DNA of 64,000 bases from a virus. Taxonomy: Duplodnaviria; Caudoviricetes. The DNA is taken from positions 16,708 to 80,707 of IMG/VR virus record IMGVR_UViG_3300037310_000564, one strand, 5' to 3'. Each line of letters opens with the position of its first letter. Within the stretch, counting starts at the first letter, position 1. Shown in pieces: positions 7,231-64,000 of this stretch. A program made the translations under genes and the position numbers. The notes under the pieces were generated by a model, which was given only the letters and a program-made list of their open reading frames with translations, was not told the origin of the DNA and searched no databases.

Positions 7231-7239
7231 ATTTTAGCA
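7231..7239 (-). promoter_or_regulatory. TGNTAAAAT late-type/extended -10 motif upstream of tape measure
   Basis: TGCTAAAAT on minus strand, 33 bp before ATG 7198; motif recurs before other late genes. Confidence 0.5.
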
Positions 7240-33092: not shown

Positions 33093-33170
33093 TTAACTAA
33101 ACTCTCTTAGGTTTCTTCCCAATCACTTTCAAATTTTATCTTAATACTCTCTATCAGCACAACTCACATC

Positions 33171-33548
33171 TCACATCTTATTCCTATCTATATTCTCCTA
33201 ATGGCGATAATTTATAATGACCTGATGATAGTCCGAGAAAATCATTGATAAAAAAGTATCCCCTAAAGGTTTTTTTAAAAATATCCGATAAGAGTATTAG
33301 CTTTCTTGTTGTACTCCTGAAAGGGGCAGAGAAAGCACTTTCGCCTGGTCTTCCGAGGTTGGATCACCTAATTCATTTTGGGTGGTCCTTTTTTTATTCC
33401 TCTCAAGTCTATCGCCTTGGCACTCTGTTAAGGTCCATGGTGCCTATGGTAACATTGCCTCACCTTCACATCTTATTCCTATCTATATTCTCCTAATGGC
33501 GATAATTTATAATGACCTGATGATAGTCCGAGAGAATCATTGCTAAAA
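33171..33548. repeat. 83-bp direct repeat, two copies (33171-33253 and 33466-33548); candidate replication origin
   Basis: TCACATCTTATTCCTATCTATATTCTCCTAATGGCGATAATTTATAATGACCTGATGATAGTCCGAGA(A/G)AATCATTG(A/C)TAAAA; 2 mismatches; period 295 bp. Confidence 0.95.
33264..33291 (+). promoter_or_regulatory. sigma28/FliA-type promoter
   Basis: TAAAGGTT-N12-TCCGATAA immediately after the first repeat copy. Confidence 0.6.
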
Positions 33549-33684
33549 TGTTGTTCAGGACTGGCATAAGCCACTTTTTGGGTTATGATCTAGTAATCTA
33601 ACTATATACAAACCCTCACCAATATGGCAAAATACAGTCTGGGAAATTTGTTTTTGTCTTTTGTTGTTTCTGCCAAGGATATTG

Positions 33685-35793
33685 ATGTTTTACGTTAAAC
33701 CTAAAAGAAAAAAACGACATGAAAAAGGTCTAGAGAAGTTAGTCCAACAGAAGAGTTTGCCTGAAGACTTCCCCCTTAAAGAGATTTGGGAATCAGAGGT
33801 TAGTAGTGGTGATAATACTTATGGCACCCCTTATCTGTTTAAGCCAATATCTTTAGTTCAGCCACAAAAAGACCCTAAAACAGCAAAACCATTGTCAGAA
33901 TTAGGATTTGAGTATACTTGTGTACGCAAATATACCACTACTTCTGGTAGGGTATACAGCACCCATTACTATAGAAAAGTCAAAAAGAGATCTGCCAAAG
34001 AAATAGAAGCTGACCAAAACAACAAGAGCCCTACTAGGTTAGTAAAGCCTAGATGGCATCAGGTACCCGCTCATCCCAATAGTGTCTTTCTGCCTATAGA
34101 TAGTAGCAAGATTTATCAAGCCATGGCTAAGACTAACTTTTTTCTTAAGCATTATCAAGACATGAGATTTACCATCAGCTCACGCAGAGATGCTTGTATT
34201 GATGGCAATACTGGACCGAGATGGTCCAATGTTTCTGTACAGACCTTCCAAAAAGCAGTAGTAAACGTCCCGGACTTACAGGCCTGGGCCTTTTTTACCA
34301 AATGGGCAATTAAGGTTCCTGAAGCCAAGGATAGTGCAGAAGAGTTGTATGACTCTTTCACGGGATACCACAATGACTATCCAACCATGGTTCCTAATAA
34401 CCATGAGTATTATGTTGTTGATATTGATGATCACCCAACATACAAACAACCAACCGATATTGTTGAAGATTTTGAAAATAGAAGTGTGCCAATGCCAATT
34501 ATCATTGCGCAGACTGGTCCATGTAATTTCCATCTATTGTTTTGGTTCCCTAAAAGGGAAGGTGTTCTTGGTACCCATCAGAATAGAGTGTTCTTTTGTT
34601 CCAAAATAGCTGGAATGGTTAAGTTTCCTAAGACCGACAAGGAAGCTGAACAGGAGTTAATTAAAAGGGGCATTGATTACAGGCACTTAAGTAATGGGTA
34701 CTTTCAGCCTAAAATTAGAATGGCTGGAATTACCAAAAGAAAAGAAAATAAAGATCCTTATTTGGTTCATTGGTTTTTTACAGGATCTTTAAATAAAAAC
34801 AATCACTTAGGGGAAGAAGTTTATTTAGGGTGGGATAGTTTCTATCATAATTTGGATAATATGGTTCTTAATCCTGCCAGGCCAGCCAAACTCCTTTATC
34901 CTAGGGCCAATATCGATAATCCAGACTTAACCCCTGATGAAAGGGATCGATTAGCAGCAAAAGTTGCACAACGCCACTTAGACAATATTCATATGCTTAT
35001 GGAAGAGGCTAAAACAGCAGATGCTGAAAGGTATGAAGAAATTGTCCAACATATTGAAAATTCACAAACAATCATCAAAGAACGCATTGAACAAGAAATA
35101 GAGGCTAAGGCAAAAAAACAAAGGCAAAAGCGCACTCTACAAAAGGAAAAAAAAGAAAACAAATGGAAGACTTATATTGGACCAATAGCCAAGTCCATAA
35201 GAAACGCTGGTCTTTTTCAAACCAAAAACGCTCACATTATTGCCTCACACCTTACCCAACATTTGGGCTTCCTATTTAGGAAAAATTGCTTTTTACATCA
35301 AAGCTTTATGGCGAAAGAGACGGGACTTGAGCAGCCATATTGCTCACTTGCTCTCAAGAAATTAGTTCAAAGCGGATATTTGGTTGTTATTAAAGAGACT
35401 AAGATAGTTATAGATAGTGCTGGCTTGTGTAGAAAGACACCTAAGGTTTATGGAATTGGTCCACGACTGCAAAAAGTAATTGATCAGGTAGATGAGAGGC
35501 TTTCCAAAGAAAAGCCAAAAGAGTTTGTTAAAAAACAAAAAGAAAATTACGATGTTGAGGCTCCATACCAAGACGGGAAGGCCAACGAACACATCATGGC
35601 CGATGCTCGTCACTTTATTAAACATCTGGAGATGTCTCCATTGGAGGCGGCAACCAAGATAATTAAAAAGCAGGAAGTGCGACCACGACATAAGCGACGG
35701 TCTTATAGAGAAATCATGAGAATGTGTGAGAAATACCTCTTTTTTCTTAAGGAGTATCGCAAAGATAGGCCATTTCTTTGCCCCTCAGGATAG
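33685..35793 (+). CDS. AEP-superfamily primase-like protein with C-terminal winged HTH (Rep-like)
   Basis: YYVVDIDD (motif I hhhDhD), QTGPCNFHLLF (motif II His), coiled coil, then SFMAKETGLEQPYCSLALKKLVQSGYL wHTH. Confidence 0.6.
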   Translation: MFYVKPKRKKRHEKGLEKLVQQKSLPEDFPLKEIWESEVSSGDNTYGTPYLFKPISLVQPQKDPKTAKPLSELGFEYTCVRKYTTTSGRVYSTHYYRKVKKRSAKEIEADQNNKSPTRLVKPRWHQVPAHPNSVFLPIDSSKIYQAMAKTNFFLKHYQDMRFTISSRRDACIDGNTGPRWSNVSVQTFQKAVVNVPDLQAWAFFTKWAIKVPEAKDSAEELYDSFTGYHNDYPTMVPNNHEYYVVDIDDHPTYKQPTDIVEDFENRSVPMPIIIAQTGPCNFHLLFWFPKREGVLGTHQNRVFFCSKIAGMVKFPKTDKEAEQELIKRGIDYRHLSNGYFQPKIRMAGITKRKENKDPYLVHWFFTGSLNKNNHLGEEVYLGWDSFYHNLDNMVLNPARPAKLLYPRANIDNPDLTPDERDRLAAKVAQRHLDNIHMLMEEAKTADAERYEEIVQHIENSQTIIKERIEQEIEAKAKKQRQKRTLQKEKKENKWKTYIGPIAKSIRNAGLFQTKNAHIIASHLTQHLGFLFRKNCFLHQSFMAKETGLEQPYCSLALKKLVQSGYLVVIKETKIVIDSAGLCRKTPKVYGIGPRLQKVIDQVDERLSKEKPKEFVKKQKENYDVEAPYQDGKANEHIMADARHFIKHLEMSPLEAATKIIKKQEVRPRHKRRSYREIMRMCEKYLFFLKEYRKDRPFLCPSG

Positions 35794-46392: not shown

Positions 46393-46424
46393 TCCAATAA
46401 ATTCCAATGCTTATGTATTAGTTG

Positions 46425-46451
46425 TAAAGTTTTTCCCAAAAAGGCCGATAA
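46425..46451 (+). promoter_or_regulatory. sigma28/FliA-type promoter
   Basis: TAAAGTTT-N11-GCCGATAA, an exact consensus match. Confidence 0.85.
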
Positions 46452-46508
46452 GGTTAATGGTAGTTGGTTGAAGTCACTTAAACTGGCTTTTTAAAACAGG
46501 GGGGTTAT

Positions 46509-46721
46509 GTGTATGTAAAAAAAGCCAAATTTATTCTGAGGATGGCATTTATTAGGCAGTGGGCTATTCCGGATCTCATTGAGATTTATTACCCGGATCT
46601 TTCGCTGGACGAAAAATGCCAAATTTTGGACGAAGTGGAAAAATTAACATTTGGAGCAATGAATCATGAAAACTCTTACAACTATTGCATTAACGATGTG
46701 TGCGGCAATTTCTTGCACTAA
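46509..46721 (+). CDS. Small hypothetical protein
   Basis: 70 aa with GGGGG RBS behind the sigma28-type promoter; overlaps the next gene by 56 bp. Confidence 0.45.
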   Translation: MYVKKAKFILRMAFIRQWAIPDLIEIYYPDLSLDEKCQILDEVEKLTFGAMNHENSYNYCINDVCGNFLH

Positions 46722-47346
46722 TTCTCAGGAGTTAGACCAAGCAACTAAGAAAATAGAGCAACTGGTAAAACAAAACAAAGAACTTCAGGGAAGGGTGGAC
46801 AACCTAAACTTTATTAACACCATTCCTTTGTCCGAGATTGTGCTGCATACTTTGCAGGCCTGTAACACCAAACAATCTGAGGCAATGATTAATTATTACT
46901 CAGAAATGATTCCGCGCGTTTTAGAAAAACGCATTCCAAATGACCGATATGGCCAAATGTCTTTATTGTCAATGTTTTGCAAAGAGTCGGGATTTAATCC
47001 TCAAGCCCAATCCCCAACTGGTCCAAAAGGTTTGGGTCAAGTGGCCAAGGCGGCTTTTCATGAAGGTCTATCACGATGTGGCCTGCCGGCGGCCAAAGAC
47101 GATGATGTTTGGGTCCCAGAGCTAAATGTAACTGCTGCGGCTTGCTATTTTCAGCACCTATTGACGTTAGCTGGACCGGGGCGATATACTGTGGCCATGG
47201 CGGCATACAACCAAGGACCTAACTCCGAAGCTGTTAAAAACCTCCAAAAACACGGGAACTTACGTGGAGAAGAGCCAACAGCCTATGTATCTGGAGTGCA
47301 CAACCTGATTGAAAAGGTTAAAGTTTCCATTGCTGCGACCAAGTGA
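46666..47346 (+). CDS. Lipoprotein lytic transglycosylase (SLT domain)
   Basis: Lipobox AISC, coiled coil, KESGFNPQAQS..GPKGLGQV (catalytic Glu), AYNQG. Confidence 0.88.
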   Translation: MKTLTTIALTMCAAISCTNSQELDQATKKIEQLVKQNKELQGRVDNLNFINTIPLSEIVLHTLQACNTKQSEAMINYYSEMIPRVLEKRIPNDRYGQMSLLSMFCKESGFNPQAQSPTGPKGLGQVAKAAFHEGLSRCGLPAAKDDDVWVPELNVTAAACYFQHLLTLAGPGRYTVAMAAYNQGPNSEAVKNLQKHGNLRGEEPTAYVSGVHNLIEKVKVSIAATK

Positions 47347-47356
47347 TGATGTGGTC

Positions 47357-47403
47357 TGTCCCAATCATCCTTATTTTTGAAGGAAAAGGCAGGGATTGGG
47401 ACA
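47357..47403. repeat. Inverted repeat upstream of the CRISPR promoter
   Basis: TGTCCCAATC-N27-GATTGGGACA. Confidence 0.7.
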
Positions 47404-47414
47404 GGGTTTTTGGA

Positions 47415-47444
47415 TTGCAATGGCTTTATTTATAGTGCTAAAGT
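47415..47444 (+). promoter_or_regulatory. sigma70-like promoter of the array
   Basis: TTGCAA-N18-TAAAGT with extended TG; predicted +1 near 47451, at the first repeat. Confidence 0.55.
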
Positions 47445-47451
47445 GTTGTCA

Positions 47452-47658
47452 GTTGTGCCCCTATGCGGGGCGGAGAAAGGCCGAAGTCATGTCGCAGGTG
47501 TATGATGTGCCGTTGTGCCCCTATGCGGGGCGGAGAAAGCCTTTGTTGATATAGTTGGGCCAAAAGATGCTGTTGTGCCCCTATGCGGGGCGGAGAAAGA
47601 TGACGATACCACTTTCCTTGCCCAGGCAGAGTTGTGCCCCTATGCGGGGCGGAGAAAG
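47452..47658 (+). CRISPR. CRISPR mini-array: 4 identical 28-bp repeats, 3 spacers (32, 32, 31 bp), type I-F-like
   Basis: GTTGTGCCCCTATGCGGGGCGGAGAAAG at 47452, 47512, 47572 and 47631; 5-bp stem GCCCC/GGGGC, 5-nt loop, 8-nt handle; no cas gene in the window. Confidence 0.93.
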
Positions 47659-47677
47659 ACAAAGGCGAGGAGAAAAC

Positions 47678-50600
47678 ATGAGCATTTTTAAACCTTTAGC
47701 GTGCGGATTTCACTCACACACTGACATTGGCAGTTTAGATGGCGGCTCCACAGTAGAGCGCAAAATCAAATATGCCAATAAAATTGGACGTATTGCTGAC
47801 TGTGTAACCGATCATGGCTTCATGCACGCATTGGCTCGCCATTGGGAATTTGCAGAAAAATGCAAAAAAGACAAAGAAAATCCATTCCATATCAAGAGTA
47901 TACATGGAATAGAATTGTATATGGTCGACCCAGACAGGCCATGGAAGGAAAACCGATCCAAAAAAATGGAGCCGCAATACTACCACGTCACGGTTCATTT
48001 CAAAACCCAAAAGGCCTATCAATATTTCTGTTCACTATCAAAAGCCATGAATGAAAGAAAAGTGGTTCGTTATGGAGAAGCTAAGCCTTTAATATTATGG
48101 GAAGAGTTGCTCCAAATCTCTGGCGAAATCACCGTTGGTAGTAGCTGTTTGGTAGGACCAGTTCAAAAAAACATATTGGCTGGACGGTCAGATTTAGCCA
48201 AAAAATGGTATGAAAAGCTTAGACACTTGGCCGGTAATGGCAATTTCTTTGTGGAGCTTTTCCCCCACATTATTGATAAGCAGTGGGAATCCCCAGTCAC
48301 TGCCAAGACCATGGTCTCCAAAATCAAAAAACAGATTAAGGAAGCATCACAGGCCGGACAGAGCACGGAATTACTGGAAAAAGAACTGGAGCGACTATCG
48401 CACATAAAAGAGCGGCAGATTATCATCCCCGGCGAGTTTGTTCCGGCAATCCAAAGAATGGATGAAGATGCCATAGACCCACCATTTATTGATGAATGCG
48501 GAAGTGGACTCATCGACATTCAGAAAAAGCCCAATGAATTTGTGCTAGAAATGGCAAGGCGCCATAACGATCCGGTTATTATTTCCTTGGATGATCACTA
48601 TGCTGCCAAATCTGACCAAATAATCCAAAATGCACGCCTCAGTAACGGCGGAAGTAGCTGGAAATTTTACGGTCTTTATGACATGAAAACATCAGAGGAT
48701 TGTGCCATTGCCTTAAAAAAACAACTGGGCTTGGTCGATTCTGACATTGAAAAGTTCATTGATAACAGCTACTTATTTGTAGAGCAATTTAAAGATTATA
48801 AATTTCAAACCATTAAGGATGGCATCCTGCTGCCAACCACAGACATGGTGTATGGAAATTTGTATACAGGAATGTCCACCAAGGACATTTTTAGGTCTTT
48901 GGTGGTAAAGCATAAGCGTTGGAAACCAGAGTGGGGACAGGAATATATTGACAGGATTCGCTACGAATTAGATGTGCTAACAAATAACGGTAAAGGCGAC
49001 TTTTTGCCGTACTTCTTTGTGGTTGAGGATGCCGTTGCGTTTTGTAAACAGCACGACAAACTGTTTAATGTTCGTGGATCAGCCGGCGGATCATTGGCCC
49101 TTTATCTATTGGGAGCATCTGTTACAGACCCCATAGCCTGGAACCTTCCCTTTGAGCGCTTCATGACCAAAGAGAGGATCGCTGAGGGCGCCATGATGGA
49201 CGCAGATTGTGACGTAGAGGAGAGAGATTTTGTCCTTAACTATTTGAAAAATAAGTACAAAGAAAACTTTGCCTTAATTAGTACAGACTTAAATCTAAAA
49301 TTCAAAAGCGCCATTAAGGACGTGCACCGAGATCTTATTGGGGTTGTTCCTCCCGAAATCGAAGAAATGTGCGTAATGATGCCGGCGGCTCCACAGGGCA
49401 TGTCCGACACTGACTTTTTGTTTGGGTATGTTGATAAAACCACCAAGACATATATGCCAGGGTTTTTAGAAAAAGAATCTATCGGCGCCACAATATTCAA
49501 ACAATGGATTGAGGAACATCCGGATCGGTGGGAAGTTGTAAAGACTTGTCTTGGTGTCAATAGGGCTCATGGCGTACATGCCGGGGGAGTATTACTAACC
49601 CCCAATCCCGTAACTAATTATATTCCCTGCTCTTATGATGATGGCATGCCTATTGCCAGCTATACGATGAAGGGCGTGGAATATGTTGGCGGTGTGAAGT
49701 ATGACTTTTTGGGTGTATCAACCCTTTTGGCCCTTGGTATTACCATGAGGTCAATTAAAAAGCATTTAGGGATTGAGTTGAAGTGGGAAGAGTTTCCACA
49801 CGACCCAGAGGTATTTGCCAAAGTATTGCACAACAATAAACTTACCTCTATCTTTCAACTTCATACACGCCTGGTTAGGCCTTTTGTAGTCAAAACATTG
49901 CCTAAATCTGTGCGCGACATTTCTGGCCTAATTGCGTTGGTACGTCCTGGAGCTCTGGACGCTGCTTCCCCTGACCCATCCTTTAATGGCAATGCCGCAG
50001 ACTTTTATTGTGCCGTAGCAAAAGGTGAAAAACAGCCATACTACATCCATCCTGACCTGGAGCCTATTTTTGGTGAAACAAATGGCATCTGTCTGTATCA
50101 AGAGCAATTACTGAGGTGTTTTAGGGATTTAGCCGGATATAGCTATGGCGAAGCTGAGGCCGTCAGGAGAGCTGTAGGTAAAAAAGTTAAAGAACTTATG
50201 GACTTACACTTAGGCATTTTGAAAAGCAGATTGTTAGAGCGGGGATGGAGTAACAGTCAGGCTACCGATCTATGCGAAACCTTAGTTAAGTCTGCCAGGT
50301 ACTCTTTCAATAAAGCCCATAGCGCCAGCTACGCCATTGTAGGATATAACGGCGCTTGGCTGAAACATCATTACCCGTTGCATTTTTGGCTGGGTGAGTT
50401 TGCAGTCAACACAGACAAAAGAGAGAAATTACGCATACTTATGATGGAAGCCCGTCATTTGGTTTTGCCGGTCAACATTAAGCACTCCCATGTTTCTGAG
50501 TGGACCATTGAGGGGGATAAGTTGCGTCCGCCACTATCTCTTCTGAAGGGCTGTGGCGAGAAAACCGCAATTAGTATTAAAAACGCAGTGTTGGGTATTT

Positions 50601-50692
50601 TTGGTGAAGGAAGTGGCGATATTGACATTGATGAGCATGAGGAATATGATCATGCCAGCGATGTTGAGGGTGAGCAGTATGGCGACAAATGA
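47678..50692 (+). CDS. dnaE: DNA polymerase III alpha, N-terminal part (PHP, palm, thumb, fingers, HhH)
   Basis: FHSHT, TDHG, RGSAGGS, DADCD, GVHAGG, KYDFLG, YQEQL, YSFNKAHSASYA; true start 47678 after GAGGAG. Confidence 0.95.
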   Translation: MSIFKPLACGFHSHTDIGSLDGGSTVERKIKYANKIGRIADCVTDHGFMHALARHWEFAEKCKKDKENPFHIKSIHGIELYMVDPDRPWKENRSKKMEPQYYHVTVHFKTQKAYQYFCSLSKAMNERKVVRYGEAKPLILWEELLQISGEITVGSSCLVGPVQKNILAGRSDLAKKWYEKLRHLAGNGNFFVELFPHIIDKQWESPVTAKTMVSKIKKQIKEASQAGQSTELLEKELERLSHIKERQIIIPGEFVPAIQRMDEDAIDPPFIDECGSGLIDIQKKPNEFVLEMARRHNDPVIISLDDHYAAKSDQIIQNARLSNGGSSWKFYGLYDMKTSEDCAIALKKQLGLVDSDIEKFIDNSYLFVEQFKDYKFQTIKDGILLPTTDMVYGNLYTGMSTKDIFRSLVVKHKRWKPEWGQEYIDRIRYELDVLTNNGKGDFLPYFFVVEDAVAFCKQHDKLFNVRGSAGGSLALYLLGASVTDPIAWNLPFERFMTKERIAEGAMMDADCDVEERDFVLNYLKNKYKENFALISTDLNLKFKSAIKDVHRDLIGVVPPEIEEMCVMMPAAPQGMSDTDFLFGYVDKTTKTYMPGFLEKESIGATIFKQWIEEHPDRWEVVKTCLGVNRAHGVHAGGVLLTPNPVTNYIPCSYDDGMPIASYTMKGVEYVGGVKYDFLGVSTLLALGITMRSIKKHLGIELKWEEFPHDPEVFAKVLHNNKLTSIFQLHTRLVRPFVVKTLPKSVRDISGLIALVRPGALDAASPDPSFNGNAADFYCAVAKGEKQPYYIHPDLEPIFGETNGICLYQEQLLRCFRDLAGYSYGEAEAVRRAVGKKVKELMDLHLGILKSRLLERGWSNSQATDLCETLVKSARYSFNKAHSASYAIVGYNGAWLKHHYPLHFWLGEFAVNTDKREKLRILMMEARHLVLPVNIKHSHVSEWTIEGDKLRPPLSLLKGCGEKTAISIKNAVLGIFGEGSGDIDIDEHEEYDHASDVEGEQYGDK

Positions 50693-51461
50693 GTGGGAAA
50701 CGTTACTAGAAAACCTAAAGGGCGCCAAAGCCAATAAGGTGTCATTTCCTGTCCCTAAATTGGGGGTTATGTTATTTGCCGGAGCATTTGACGACTTTAT
50801 TCCACCCGGAATGTCGCGCAGCATTAATACATACAGATTTATGTTTGAAGAGATAAAAAAAGCCCTAAAATCAACAGCAAAATTACCCAAAAAGACCAAA
50901 ACTGAATCTGTGGACCTGAATGACGGCGACTTAACGCCACTTAAACTAATGCTTTGGCGCCAAGATGTAAATCCTGTTTGTGCCAGTGATGTGTTAAATC
51001 TCTATAGAGCAAAAATAATCAGTGATTATGGGTTTTTAACTGCCCATCCTGACATAGATCATTTTCATTTTGTGGAAATGGCCGGACCATCCAAGAAAAA
51101 TGATAAAGTTATCAATCACTTAGTTATAAATACTGCAGAGGCGATGGACCAATTCCTGCTATATAAAGATGGGATGAAACAACTTCACATCTTTGGGTTG
51201 GTAGAGTCCAGGACTTTTAAGAAATTTGGTAAAGACAGTCCACAAAGAACCCGCATGATATTGACACTTAATACCGGGCACGGCATTACACCTCCTATCA
51301 CAGTATGGCCAAATAAAAATGGTGTTGTTGACCCTTACCATTTGGCCGTATATACTGTTGGAAAGCCTGTGCTGATGCACATCTCTGTTAAAGATTGGCA
51401 AGGCTCACCATCACTGTCGCTTGCGCCTGGAGGGACATTGTGGCTAGCTTTAGGGAATTAG
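50679..51461 (+). CDS. DnaE C-terminal part (AGAFD motif plus OB-fold) as a separate ORF
   Basis: MLFAGAFDDF matches DnaE LIxAGAFD; HIFGLVESRTFKK...MILTLNTG...ITVWP OB-fold; overlaps the N-part by 14 bp. Confidence 0.75.
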   Translation: MATNEWETLLENLKGAKANKVSFPVPKLGVMLFAGAFDDFIPPGMSRSINTYRFMFEEIKKALKSTAKLPKKTKTESVDLNDGDLTPLKLMLWRQDVNPVCASDVLNLYRAKIISDYGFLTAHPDIDHFHFVEMAGPSKKNDKVINHLVINTAEAMDQFLLYKDGMKQLHIFGLVESRTFKKFGKDSPQRTRMILTLNTGHGITPPITVWPNKNGVVDPYHLAVYTVGKPVLMHISVKDWQGSPSLSLAPGGTLWLALGN

Positions 51462-51937
51462 GTAAAAAAGCTGACATACCAAAACCAAAGACAAAAAAGA
51501 AAAAGGAGTTTGTGTTAGATGTTTTTCTAAAGGCCACGCTCCGGGGAGCTTTCAAGAAAACACCGATGTTTCAGGAAGCAAAAAGAAGAGCGAAGGTGGA
51601 AGTTTTTGAAAAAAGCAAGCATGGCAAGGACTTACGTCGTGTTAAGTATAGATGCGCGCATTGCCAACAGCTGTTTAGTGACAAGATAGGCCAGAGGGAT
51701 ATTGCTGTAGACCATATTGAGCCAGTTATTCCGGTGGACCATGAACTAAAACACTCATTAGATTGGATATTTAGGTTGTTTTGTAGCACCACAAATTTGC
51801 AAGTGCTGTGCAATTATAAGGGGGAAAGAGACGGAACACCTTCTTGTCATGCCATAAAAACCAAAAAGGAACGAGCCGCATTGGCAGAATTTAATAGGTC
51901 AAAGCTAGCGCAACATGAGGATTTTACTAATGAATAA
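51440..51937 (+). CDS. HNH endonuclease
   Basis: YRCAHC...VDHIEPV...NLQVLC...CHAIKT. Confidence 0.85.
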   Translation: MASFRELGKKADIPKPKTKKKKEFVLDVFLKATLRGAFKKTPMFQEAKRRAKVEVFEKSKHGKDLRRVKYRCAHCQQLFSDKIGQRDIAVDHIEPVIPVDHELKHSLDWIFRLFCSTTNLQVLCNYKGERDGTPSCHAIKTKKERAALAEFNRSKLAQHEDFTNE

Positions 51938-62769: not shown

Positions 62770-62964
62770 ATGAATAAGGCTGTAACGAAAAAACGTCGAG
62801 TGACGGTTATTAAGCCGCCTGTCCGTCCATATTGTGCGAAATTTTTGCATGAAAGGGTGGATGGTTTACTTTTTATTTATGTGGAGCATTTCATATCAAA
62901 TATGATTGATGCTCAAATTAACAGCCCTATAGATCAGATAAAACAAAGAATATTGAGGAGATAG
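62770..62964 (+). CDS. Small hypothetical protein
   Basis: 64 aa between thyX and the helicase. Confidence 0.45.
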   Translation: MNKAVTKKRRVTVIKPPVRPYCAKFLHERVDGLLFIYVEHFISNMIDAQINSPIDQIKQRILRR

Positions 62965-64000
62965 TGGTGCAACAGGATATTTTGCAATATGTGCCATATG
63001 GCATAACTTTGCGGAATGTGCAGGAAAAAGCTTTATTGTGGTACCAACAAAGCCAAAAAAGCAAAAAAATCAACATTTTAAATATGCCGGTTGGAGCAGG
63101 CAAAGGCCATGTGGCAATTACTATTGCCAATTATTTAGCAGCAAAAAAAACGGGAGGCACTGCTGCGGTATTGGTGCCTACCAAAATACTACAGGACCAG
63201 TTTGAAAATGACTATCCCTTTATACCCCTGGTAAAGGGTATGGCTAACTATTCATGTAACACTTCGTCCTCAATACTGAATGATGCGCCGGCAGAGACAA
63301 TGAGCTGCGCCGTCTCAAAGCTACTCTTTCATCAATTCTGTGATGGATGTCCATATATTGCCACCATTAAGCAAGCACAAGTCTCACCCGTCTCTATTTT
63401 TAACATCCATTCATATCATAGCCTGGATCTGAAAAGTAAAAATATTATCATCGACGAAGGCCATAATATTATTAAGTTTTTATTTGATATGGCTTCCATT
63501 ATTTTGTGGGAACCTGAGTGGAAATTTGACGTATCTGTGAGTTATGGTCCCCACAACACCATACCTGTTTTGTCGGCCGCCATATCCTCTCTGCAATCGG
63601 CCCTTGAGGATGCATTGGTAAAAAAGCTTATCAAACAAATAGAGACTCTTGAATATCAAATAAAGCTGTATTCCATGGTCATGAGCTGTTTAAAGCAACA
63701 TCCCGAGGATTTTTTAATTGTCCTAAAAGAGATGGAATATGACAACCCAAAACACCAAAACCTCAAAGGAACTCAACAAAAACAGATATTTATAAAACCA
63801 AAAACAGTTAAAAACCTGTCTAACTTATTTTTTTCTGGTGTGGATAATGTCGTCTTACTATCAGCTACCATTGGCATAGAAAAGATGGAAGAGTTGGGGT
63901 TTGATGCCAATGATGTTGGTATTTTTGAGAGCGACAGCCCCATTCCTACTGAAAAACGACCGCTGTATCTCTATCCTGTGGCTTCTATGGCATACAGACA
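62964..64000 (+). CDS. DinG/XPD-like SF2 helicase, partial, runs off the right edge; not in ORF track
   Basis: GTG after GAGGAG; LRNVQEKAL Q-motif, MPVGAGKGH Walker A variant, PTKILQDQ, four Cys (NYSC..C..CDGCPY), IIDEGHN, LLSATI. Confidence 0.85.
   Translation, partial: MVQQDILQYVPYGITLRNVQEKALLWYQQSQKSKKINILNMPVGAGKGHVAITIANYLAAKKTGGTAAVLVPTKILQDQFENDYPFIPLVKGMANYSCNTSSSILNDAPAETMSCAVSKLLFHQFCDGCPYIATIKQAQVSPVSIFNIHSYHSLDLKSKNIIIDEGHNIIKFLFDMASIILWEPEWKFDVSVSYGPHNTIPVLSAAISSLQSALEDALVKKLIKQIETLEYQIKLYSMVMSCLKQHPEDFLIVLKEMEYDNPKHQNLKGTQQKQIFIKPKTVKNLSNLFFSGVDNVVLLSATIGIEKMEELGFDANDVGIFESDSPIPTEKRPLYLYPVASMAYR

Follow-up and report, generated by a model that had tools for sequence, protein, structure and literature searches.

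[quoted passage not shown] Those of the Sulfolobales viruses SPV1 and SPV2 (Medvedeva et al. 2019, PMC6858448) and of other archaeal and bacterial viruses (reviewed in PMC11656645) are short, possess their own promoter or leader and have no cas genes nearby; they hold one or two spacers that target related viruses, their repeats are identical to those of the host (PMC11656645), and they are presumed to use host Cas proteins. Compact arrays are also found in huge phages, with a median of six repeats and usually with some cas genes or host-like repeats (Al-Shayeb et al. 2020, PMC7162821), and use of host Cas proteins has been proposed for those huge phages that encode no effector (PMC7162821). 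Two further phage elements are built from CRISPR repeats. Cracr arrays (Liu et al., bioRxiv 10.1101/2024.10.29.618823) are multi-unit repeat-spacer elements that hijack host Cas proteins; their repeats are degenerate, their spacers partly match cas or toxin promoters, and the described viral regulatory example has shortened spacers of 21–24 nt (bioRxiv 10.1101/2024.10.29.618823). In Racr elements (Camara-Wilpert et al. 2023, PMC10651486), which are RNA anti-CRISPRs, a solitary repeat mimic lies directly behind a promoter, unlinked to cas genes, and is expressed as a small RNA.

The locus compared here with these systems lies in a window of 64,000 nucleotides, the last 64 kb of a linear, 80,707-bp IMG/VR record rated as about 49% complete by CheckV. 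The phage encodes structural proteins (sheath, major head, baseplate, lysozyme), a replication module (DnaB-type helicase, SbcCD, DnaE-type polymerase, UvsX-like recombinase, primase), ribonucleotide reductase and ThyX. Among isolates, it has one relative, Myxococcus phage Mx1 (169.6 kb; DnaE 31.5% and capsid protein 21.5% identical). The phage, which we take to be contractile-tailed and distantly Mx1-like, is uncultivated, and its genome is estimated at about 165 kb. It thus resembles the huge phages in being a large uncultivated phage with a compact array, but it is smaller, and neither a cas gene nor a host repeat is known for it.

CRISPR arrays are recognized by at least three near-identical direct repeats of 23–47 nt, with unique spacers of almost equal length between them. 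In the window, a 28-nt repeat (GTTGTGCCCCTATGCGGGGCGGAGAAAG) occurs on the plus strand in four exact copies, at 47452–47479, 47512–47539, 47572–47599 and 47631–47658, on which reading of the window, a repeat finder and a pattern search agree; the last of these, the terminal repeat, is not degenerate. Between them lie three unique spacers at 47480–47511 (32 nt, 56% GC), 47540–47571 (32 nt, 41% GC) and 47600–47630 (31 nt, 52% GC), compared with 42% GC for the genome, so that the period of the array is 60/60/59. The repeat was not matched in any of 100 dinucleotide shuffles. As RNA, it is predicted to form a hairpin of −12 kcal/mol, with five G-C pairs between positions 6–10 and 16–20, a possible U5-G21 extension (giving a stem of 5–6 bp), a 5-nt loop and an 8-nt purine-rich tail. 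The first-pass annotation had proposed a CRISPR mini-array with four identical 28-bp repeats and spacers of 32, 32 and 31 nt; the repeats are borne out, the spacer sequences and lengths stand as first written, and the element is a real four-repeat, three-spacer CRISPR-type array.

The only open reading frame across the array is an in-frame upstream extension, from a TTG codon, of the gene that follows, which encodes a DnaE-type DNA polymerase III alpha subunit (47678–50692, plus strand; PHP, NTPase and finger domains). Counted from ATG 47678, the alignment of the dnaE product with its homologues begins at residue 4, and a ribosome-binding site, GAGGAG (47667–47672), lies 5 nt upstream of this ATG; the array is therefore non-coding. 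On its other side stands a unit made up of a 70-aa open reading frame and an SLT transglycosylase gene (46666–47346, called by its SLT domain match), which ends in a terminator-like hairpin at 47355–47411, read and folded on the plus strand (stem of 10–12 bp, large loop, run of T5). The array follows this hairpin behind a predicted plus-strand promoter consisting of TTGCAA at 47415–47420 and, after an 18-nt spacer, the extended −10 element TGCTAAAGT at 47436–47444. Transcription from it would start at about 47450–47453, which is the first repeat.

This promoter was read from the sequence and was not called by a generic sigma70 scan. Its −10 motif, TGnTA[AT]A[AG]T, has 25 matches in the window, 11 of them within the roughly 5% of the DNA that is intergenic, and 9 of these 11 face the gene that follows, among them copies before the capsid, sheath and Rep-like genes. 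Given this intergenic enrichment and orientation toward genes, it is plausible that the array has a real promoter of its own with a start at about the first repeat. The earlier proposal of a non-coding array behind a TTGCAA/TGnTAAAGT promoter gains support from the recurrence of this motif class, though its spacing needed correction, as TTGCAA and TAAAGT (47439–47444) are 18 nt apart and not 17. Extended −10 sites of the form TGnTAAA(A/G)T were noted at 7239(−), 16263(−), 19840(−), 24524(−), 29068(−), 33541(+), 47436(+), 60016(−) and 61058(−), so that promoters of this class precede at least eight genes of the window besides the array. Three copies of the extended −10 motif are followed by GTTGT, the first five bases of the CRISPR repeat; one of the three (26637) falls within a called open reading frame.

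No terminator was found in the 19-nt link between repeat 4 and dnaE (47659–47677, plus strand), and with so short a link the array and the polymerase gene would share one transcript. The array is thus most likely, as judged from this arrangement, the 5′ leader of the dnaE mRNA, a placement that sets it apart from known mini-arrays. Nucleotides 14–23 of spacer 3 (UUUCCUUGCC, 47613–47622) are predicted to form a 10-bp helix, including two G-U pairs, with GGCGAGGAGA (47664–47673). This helix would cover the dnaE Shine-Dalgarno sequence and enclose repeat 4 (chance occurrence about 1–2% by rough estimate; fold z of −2.5), and it is possible on this model that it links array processing to polymerase translation. 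Downstream, a 302-aa open reading frame (50553–51461) overlaps the end of dnaE and matches the C-terminal part of a relative's DnaE, which is longer (1,196 aa). In this phage, the polymerase may be split or carry a frameshift. Next comes an HNH endonuclease gene (51395–51937).

The setting of the array in the replication module, directly before dnaE, and the predicted pairing of spacer 3 with the dnaE Shine-Dalgarno sequence would also be expected if the 28-bp units had nothing to do with CRISPR, being instead sites on the DNA where a phage protein (such as an AEP/wHTH initiator) binds, or a regulatory RNA leader of dnaE, with the 60-bp spacing a coincidence. To the same effect, the only other related copy of the repeat in the genome, discussed below, lies in a probable origin region upstream of a Rep-like gene. 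However, a unit of 28 + 32 nt, unique spacers of near-constant length, the position of the hairpin and the GTT...GAAAG ends together make up a CRISPR signature, whereas iterons are usually shorter, degenerate and spaced at helical multiples. The element is also absent from relatives that share the dnaE module, and the palindrome is lost in the other copy. We therefore consider a non-CRISPR origin of the units very unlikely.

As to type, the first-pass annotation called the array type I-F-like, and for its geometry this stands: a 28-nt repeat and a 32-nt spacer form a 60-nt unit, the repeat is divided 5+5+5+5+8 with its stem at positions 6–10/16–20 and a 5-nt loop, the 8-nt 3′ tail would become the crRNA 5′ handle, and the repeat starts with GTT and has a purine-rich ...AGAAA end. 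The sequence does not bear the assignment out. The closing pair is G6-C20, compared with C6-G20 in type I-F repeats (of the Pectobacterium/P. aeruginosa type, processed by Cas6f), to which the sequence is otherwise unrelated, and neither Rfam CRISPR-DR nor other Rfam families matched at the gathering score or at E ≤ 10. Type I-F handles read CU(U/A)AGAAA, whereas the handle here is GGAGAAAG. The stem is CCCC/GGGG-rich, more in the manner of I-E or IV-A repeats. In its arrangement of stem, loop and 8-nt tail, the repeat agrees with the I-F repeat shown in work on RacrIF1, where C6 and G20 were crucial for binding and processing by Cas6f and a C6G/G20C swap abolished both binding and activity (PMC10651486). 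With G at position 6 and C at position 20, the repeat lacks one defining feature of canonical I-F, and it may still work in an I-F-like manner with a Cas6 enzyme of different specificity. The repeat string did not occur in the Racr supplementary tables or in literature string searches.

To search for cas genes, 89 open reading frames from the whole 80,707-bp record were scanned against PADLOC and Pfam. No Cas protein was found among them, which upholds the first-pass statement that no cas gene is recognizable in 64 kb and extends it to the full record; as the record represents only about 49% of the genome, this does not make the whole phage Cas-less. Profiles for Cas6f, Cas7f (PF09618, PF09615) and Cas1 likewise had no match in the record or in either of two relatives, one of which is a complete 162.7-kb genome. 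PADLOC matches to typeIV_DinG and Cas3 were dismissed, since both fall on a generic helicase gene that runs off the end of the contig and their models also ring in 14 of 14 control genomes; the gene concerned (62964–63998), DinG/XPD-like, scored 41 bits on the type IV CasDinG model. A match to Cas8e amounted to 14.9 bits on an 85-aa open reading frame. The proteins encoded after dnaE were also considered, on account of their sizes, as hidden Cas subunits and rejected: the 302-aa protein is equivalent to the C-terminal end of the longer DnaE in an array-less relative; a 338-aa protein weakly matches sequence further downstream in that relative (E of about 3 × 10−6); and the remainder have no homologue in the relatives, one of them being the HNH endonuclease. 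The 710-aa product of the gene beside the other repeat copy looks like an AEP/wHTH replication initiator and not like a nuclease.

With about half of the genome unseen, the array might belong to an ordinary phage CRISPR-Cas system whose cas genes, or a compact single effector, lie remote from it. CRISPR-Cas systems are indeed encoded by huge and large phages, many such systems being without adaptation genes (PMC7162821), and a repeat with no match in the cellular genomes searched is what a phage-specific system would lead one to expect. Yet arrays normally adjoin their cas genes, and around this one there are only replication and structural genes, over more than 16 kb on the downstream side and about 64 kb on the upstream side. 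Together with the lack of Cas6f, Cas7f and Cas1 in the complete relative and the dismissal of the DinG, Cas3 and Cas8e matches, this makes a system of the phage's own unlikely.

Known viral mini-arrays copy host repeats, and the main weakness of reading this locus as another of their kind is that no host repeat was matched. The exact repeat has no further occurrence in IMG/VR, and its 24-nt core was not found in 185,579 species genomes. A degenerate pattern (GTTNNGCCCCNNNNNGGGGCNNAGAAA) gave 7 single matches in genome_contigs and 20 in metagenome_contigs (JGI), none of them in an array; one, which resembled the other repeat copy of the phage, lay on an enterobacterial chromosome fragment and was put down to chance. 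A pattern common to the repeat and that copy was absent from IMG/VR and from the two relatives. As the nearest isolate is a Myxococcus phage, 401 + 401 genomes from two phyla were searched for the repeat with up to 3 mismatches, and these yielded single matches only, at the rate of a reversed-pattern control. The repeat search thus named no host, with no host array among species genomes, JGI metagenomes, IMG/VR or the 802 sampled genomes.

Spacer searches were equally negative. By exact or near-exact search, the spacers had no match in 50,697 phage records or 72,556 plasmids, and none of the three had a protospacer in IMG/VR, searched with 23-nt seed patterns in which every sixth base was free. 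No protospacer was present in the two relatives, which are very distant (42% DnaE identity), and there was no self-target in the phage. Since only exact and near-exact matches were sought, these results are compatible with diverged targets. In comparison with known mini-arrays, whose repeats match a host and whose spacers match related viruses, the array here thus has three spacers and neither a host match nor a target match.

In the two relatives, the gene order is sbcD, sbcC, a small 111-aa open reading frame and dnaE, with neither the array nor the SLT unit; the stretch 46393–47411 (70-aa open reading frame, SLT gene and terminator) is missing from both along with the array. The complete relative of 162.7 kb has terminal repeats. 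No relative of the SLT protein was found in IMG/VR. Given that both relatives carry the dnaE module without the array, the array is an insert acquired in this lineage and not a conserved dnaE leader. The same phage was recovered from at least five other samples at 99.2–100% identity, as contigs of 2–12 kb only; samples that hold it include JGI 3300043260, 3300037851 and 3300043268, with runs SRR12687664 and SRR12687606. In the two of these contigs that cover the region, the array and its flanks are base-for-base identical to the window; there is thus no sign of spacer turnover, although at 99.2–100% identity the populations have diverged too little for constraint to be read from this.

An acquired insert with unchanging spacers could be an inert passenger, that is, a fragment of a host array brought in by illegitimate recombination and fixed in the dnaE leader without function. 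The identity of the spacers in all samples, the lack of any target found and the lack of a host-type leader (the 40 nt upstream being a phage promoter) are in keeping with such an origin. The first of these says little in populations so nearly identical, however, and all four repeats, the terminal one included, are perfect, the array is placed exactly at the predicted start site of a phage promoter and before an essential gene, and the genome contains another element that is related to it. An inert fragment is on these grounds quite unlikely.

This second element is a solitary, diverged copy of the repeat (GTTGTACTCCTGAAAGGGGCAGAGAAAG) on the plus strand at 33308–33335, identical to the array repeat at 21 of 28 positions and at 12 of the last 13, handle included. 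No genome dinucleotide shuffle out of 300 contained a sequence with 7 or fewer mismatches to the repeat. A putative sigma28-like promoter, likewise a sequence reading (TAAAGGTT, 12 nt, TCCGATAA; 33264–33291, plus strand), ends 16 nt 5′ of the copy, and a 25-nt spacer-like stretch separates it from an intrinsic terminator (plus-strand call; stretch and terminator together 33336–33398, stem at 33361–33388, T7). Promoter and terminator would bound a structured RNA of about 100 nt (fold z of −3.0). By folding, the copy has lost the palindrome and its own hairpin is weak; for its handle, pairing with GCUUUCUU just upstream is predicted. Two direct repeats of about 83 bp (33163–33246 and 33467–33544) flank the cassette, just upstream of the AEP/wHTH Rep-like gene (33661–35793, 710 aa) in what is probably an origin region; the layout suggests either an insertion that duplicated its promoter-bearing flanks or a portion of the replication origin.

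By analogy with described elements, the unit at 33308–33398 is a candidate for a small RNA, about 100 nt long, of the Racr or Cracr kind. As in Racr, a repeat mimic would lie behind a promoter, unlinked to cas genes; in contrast to RacrIF1, which keeps C6-G20 and a good stem-loop, the stem here is weak and the copy resembles only the array of the phage itself and no known host repeat. The succession of putative promoter, repeat, short tail and terminator also resembles that of a single-spacer cracr gene, and the unit fits Cracr better than the array does: the array shares with Cracr the multi-unit repeat-spacer form, but its repeats are perfect and its spacers are 31–32 nt long.

These likenesses raise the possibility that the array and the 33308 RNA serve counter-defence, their products acting as decoys for Cas6 and Cas7 in the manner of Racr, or reprogramming the host complex so that it represses promoters of cas or other defence genes in the manner of Cracr/crlRNA. 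The first-pass annotation had suggested that the array may either supply guides to a host effector or titrate host Cas proteins, and both roles stay at the level of proposals. Phage Racrs and multi-spacer Cracr arrays are documented, often right behind a promoter (PMC10651486; bioRxiv 10.1101/2024.10.29.618823), the solitary copy has this anatomy with its handle part the best kept, and the lack of viral protospacers is as expected if host promoters were targeted. Against this, described Cracr units are degenerate with shortened spacers, whereas the array has perfect repeats and full-length spacers, and no acr-type neighbour was recognized. A counter-defence role seems on the whole somewhat unlikely. 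The full-length spacers and perfect repeats lead us to favour true guides over shortened regulatory RNAs of the described kind.

Our preferred reading, to which we would give a little less than an even chance, is that the locus is a virus-borne orphan mini-array, transcribed with dnaE, processed in trans by a Cas6-type enzyme and used to supply interference guides. We counted in its favour the exact repeats with their unique, full-length spacers, the stable repeat hairpin with its I-F layout, the lack of Cas proteins in the 80.7 kb scanned, the acquired nature of the insert, the terminator that closes off the unit upstream of it and the recurrent promoter class, and the second, diverged repeat unit fits, by analogy, a phage that deals in Cas-binding RNAs. 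Besides the unmatched repeat, what speaks against an orphan mini-array is the want of any protospacer, the identical array in two other samples and the unseen half of the genome. Like the known viral mini-arrays, the array is short, stands behind what would be its own promoter and has no cas genes nearby, and here as there host Cas proteins are presumed to be used.

For such an orphan array, we envisage that transcription would run from the phage extended −10 promoter, from about the first repeat, as the 5′ leader of the dnaE mRNA, and that each repeat would fold into its GC hairpin (positions 6–10 with 16–20). A Cas6-family endoribonuclease supplied in trans, most probably from a class 1 CRISPR-Cas system of the host, would then cut at the 3′ base of each hairpin; this enzyme is hypothetical, since canonical Cas6f needs the opposite of the G6-C20 closing pair seen here. 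The resulting crRNAs, of about 60 nt, would consist of a 5′ handle of 7–8 nt, (G)GAGAAAG, a full-length spacer of 31–32 nt and the hairpin as a 3′ tag. Loaded into a host surveillance complex, they would be aimed at sequences that the phage wants attacked, most likely those of rival phages or of other mobile elements that share the cell with it.

A more elaborate version combines an undescribed Cas6/Cascade specificity, of which the unmatched repeat with its I-F geometry and reversed closing pair would be the mark, a guide array wired into the dnaE leader, masking of the ribosome-binding site by spacer 3 and a solitary-repeat RNA that acts as decoy or regulator under a flagellar-type promoter. 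Cutting by Cas6 and loading into Cascade would then both make guides and free dnaE for translation. The conjunction of all of these is very unlikely.

Borrowing of Cas proteins by viral mini-arrays is an already known strategy, of which the array here would be one more example. What is new is a repeat type without counterpart in the cellular genomes, metagenomes and IMG/VR records searched, its location at the head of an essential replication gene, whose 5′ leader it likely forms, and, in the same genome, a putative RNA gene with a solitary repeat. Taken without a host or targets, it is one more orphan viral array. Phage orphan arrays bear on how viruses turn host adaptive immunity on their rivals or on the host itself; if the cognate Cas proteins of this one were found, it could reveal a Cas6 with reversed stem-base specificity and a natural case in which the production of guide RNAs is coupled to the expression of a phage replication gene.
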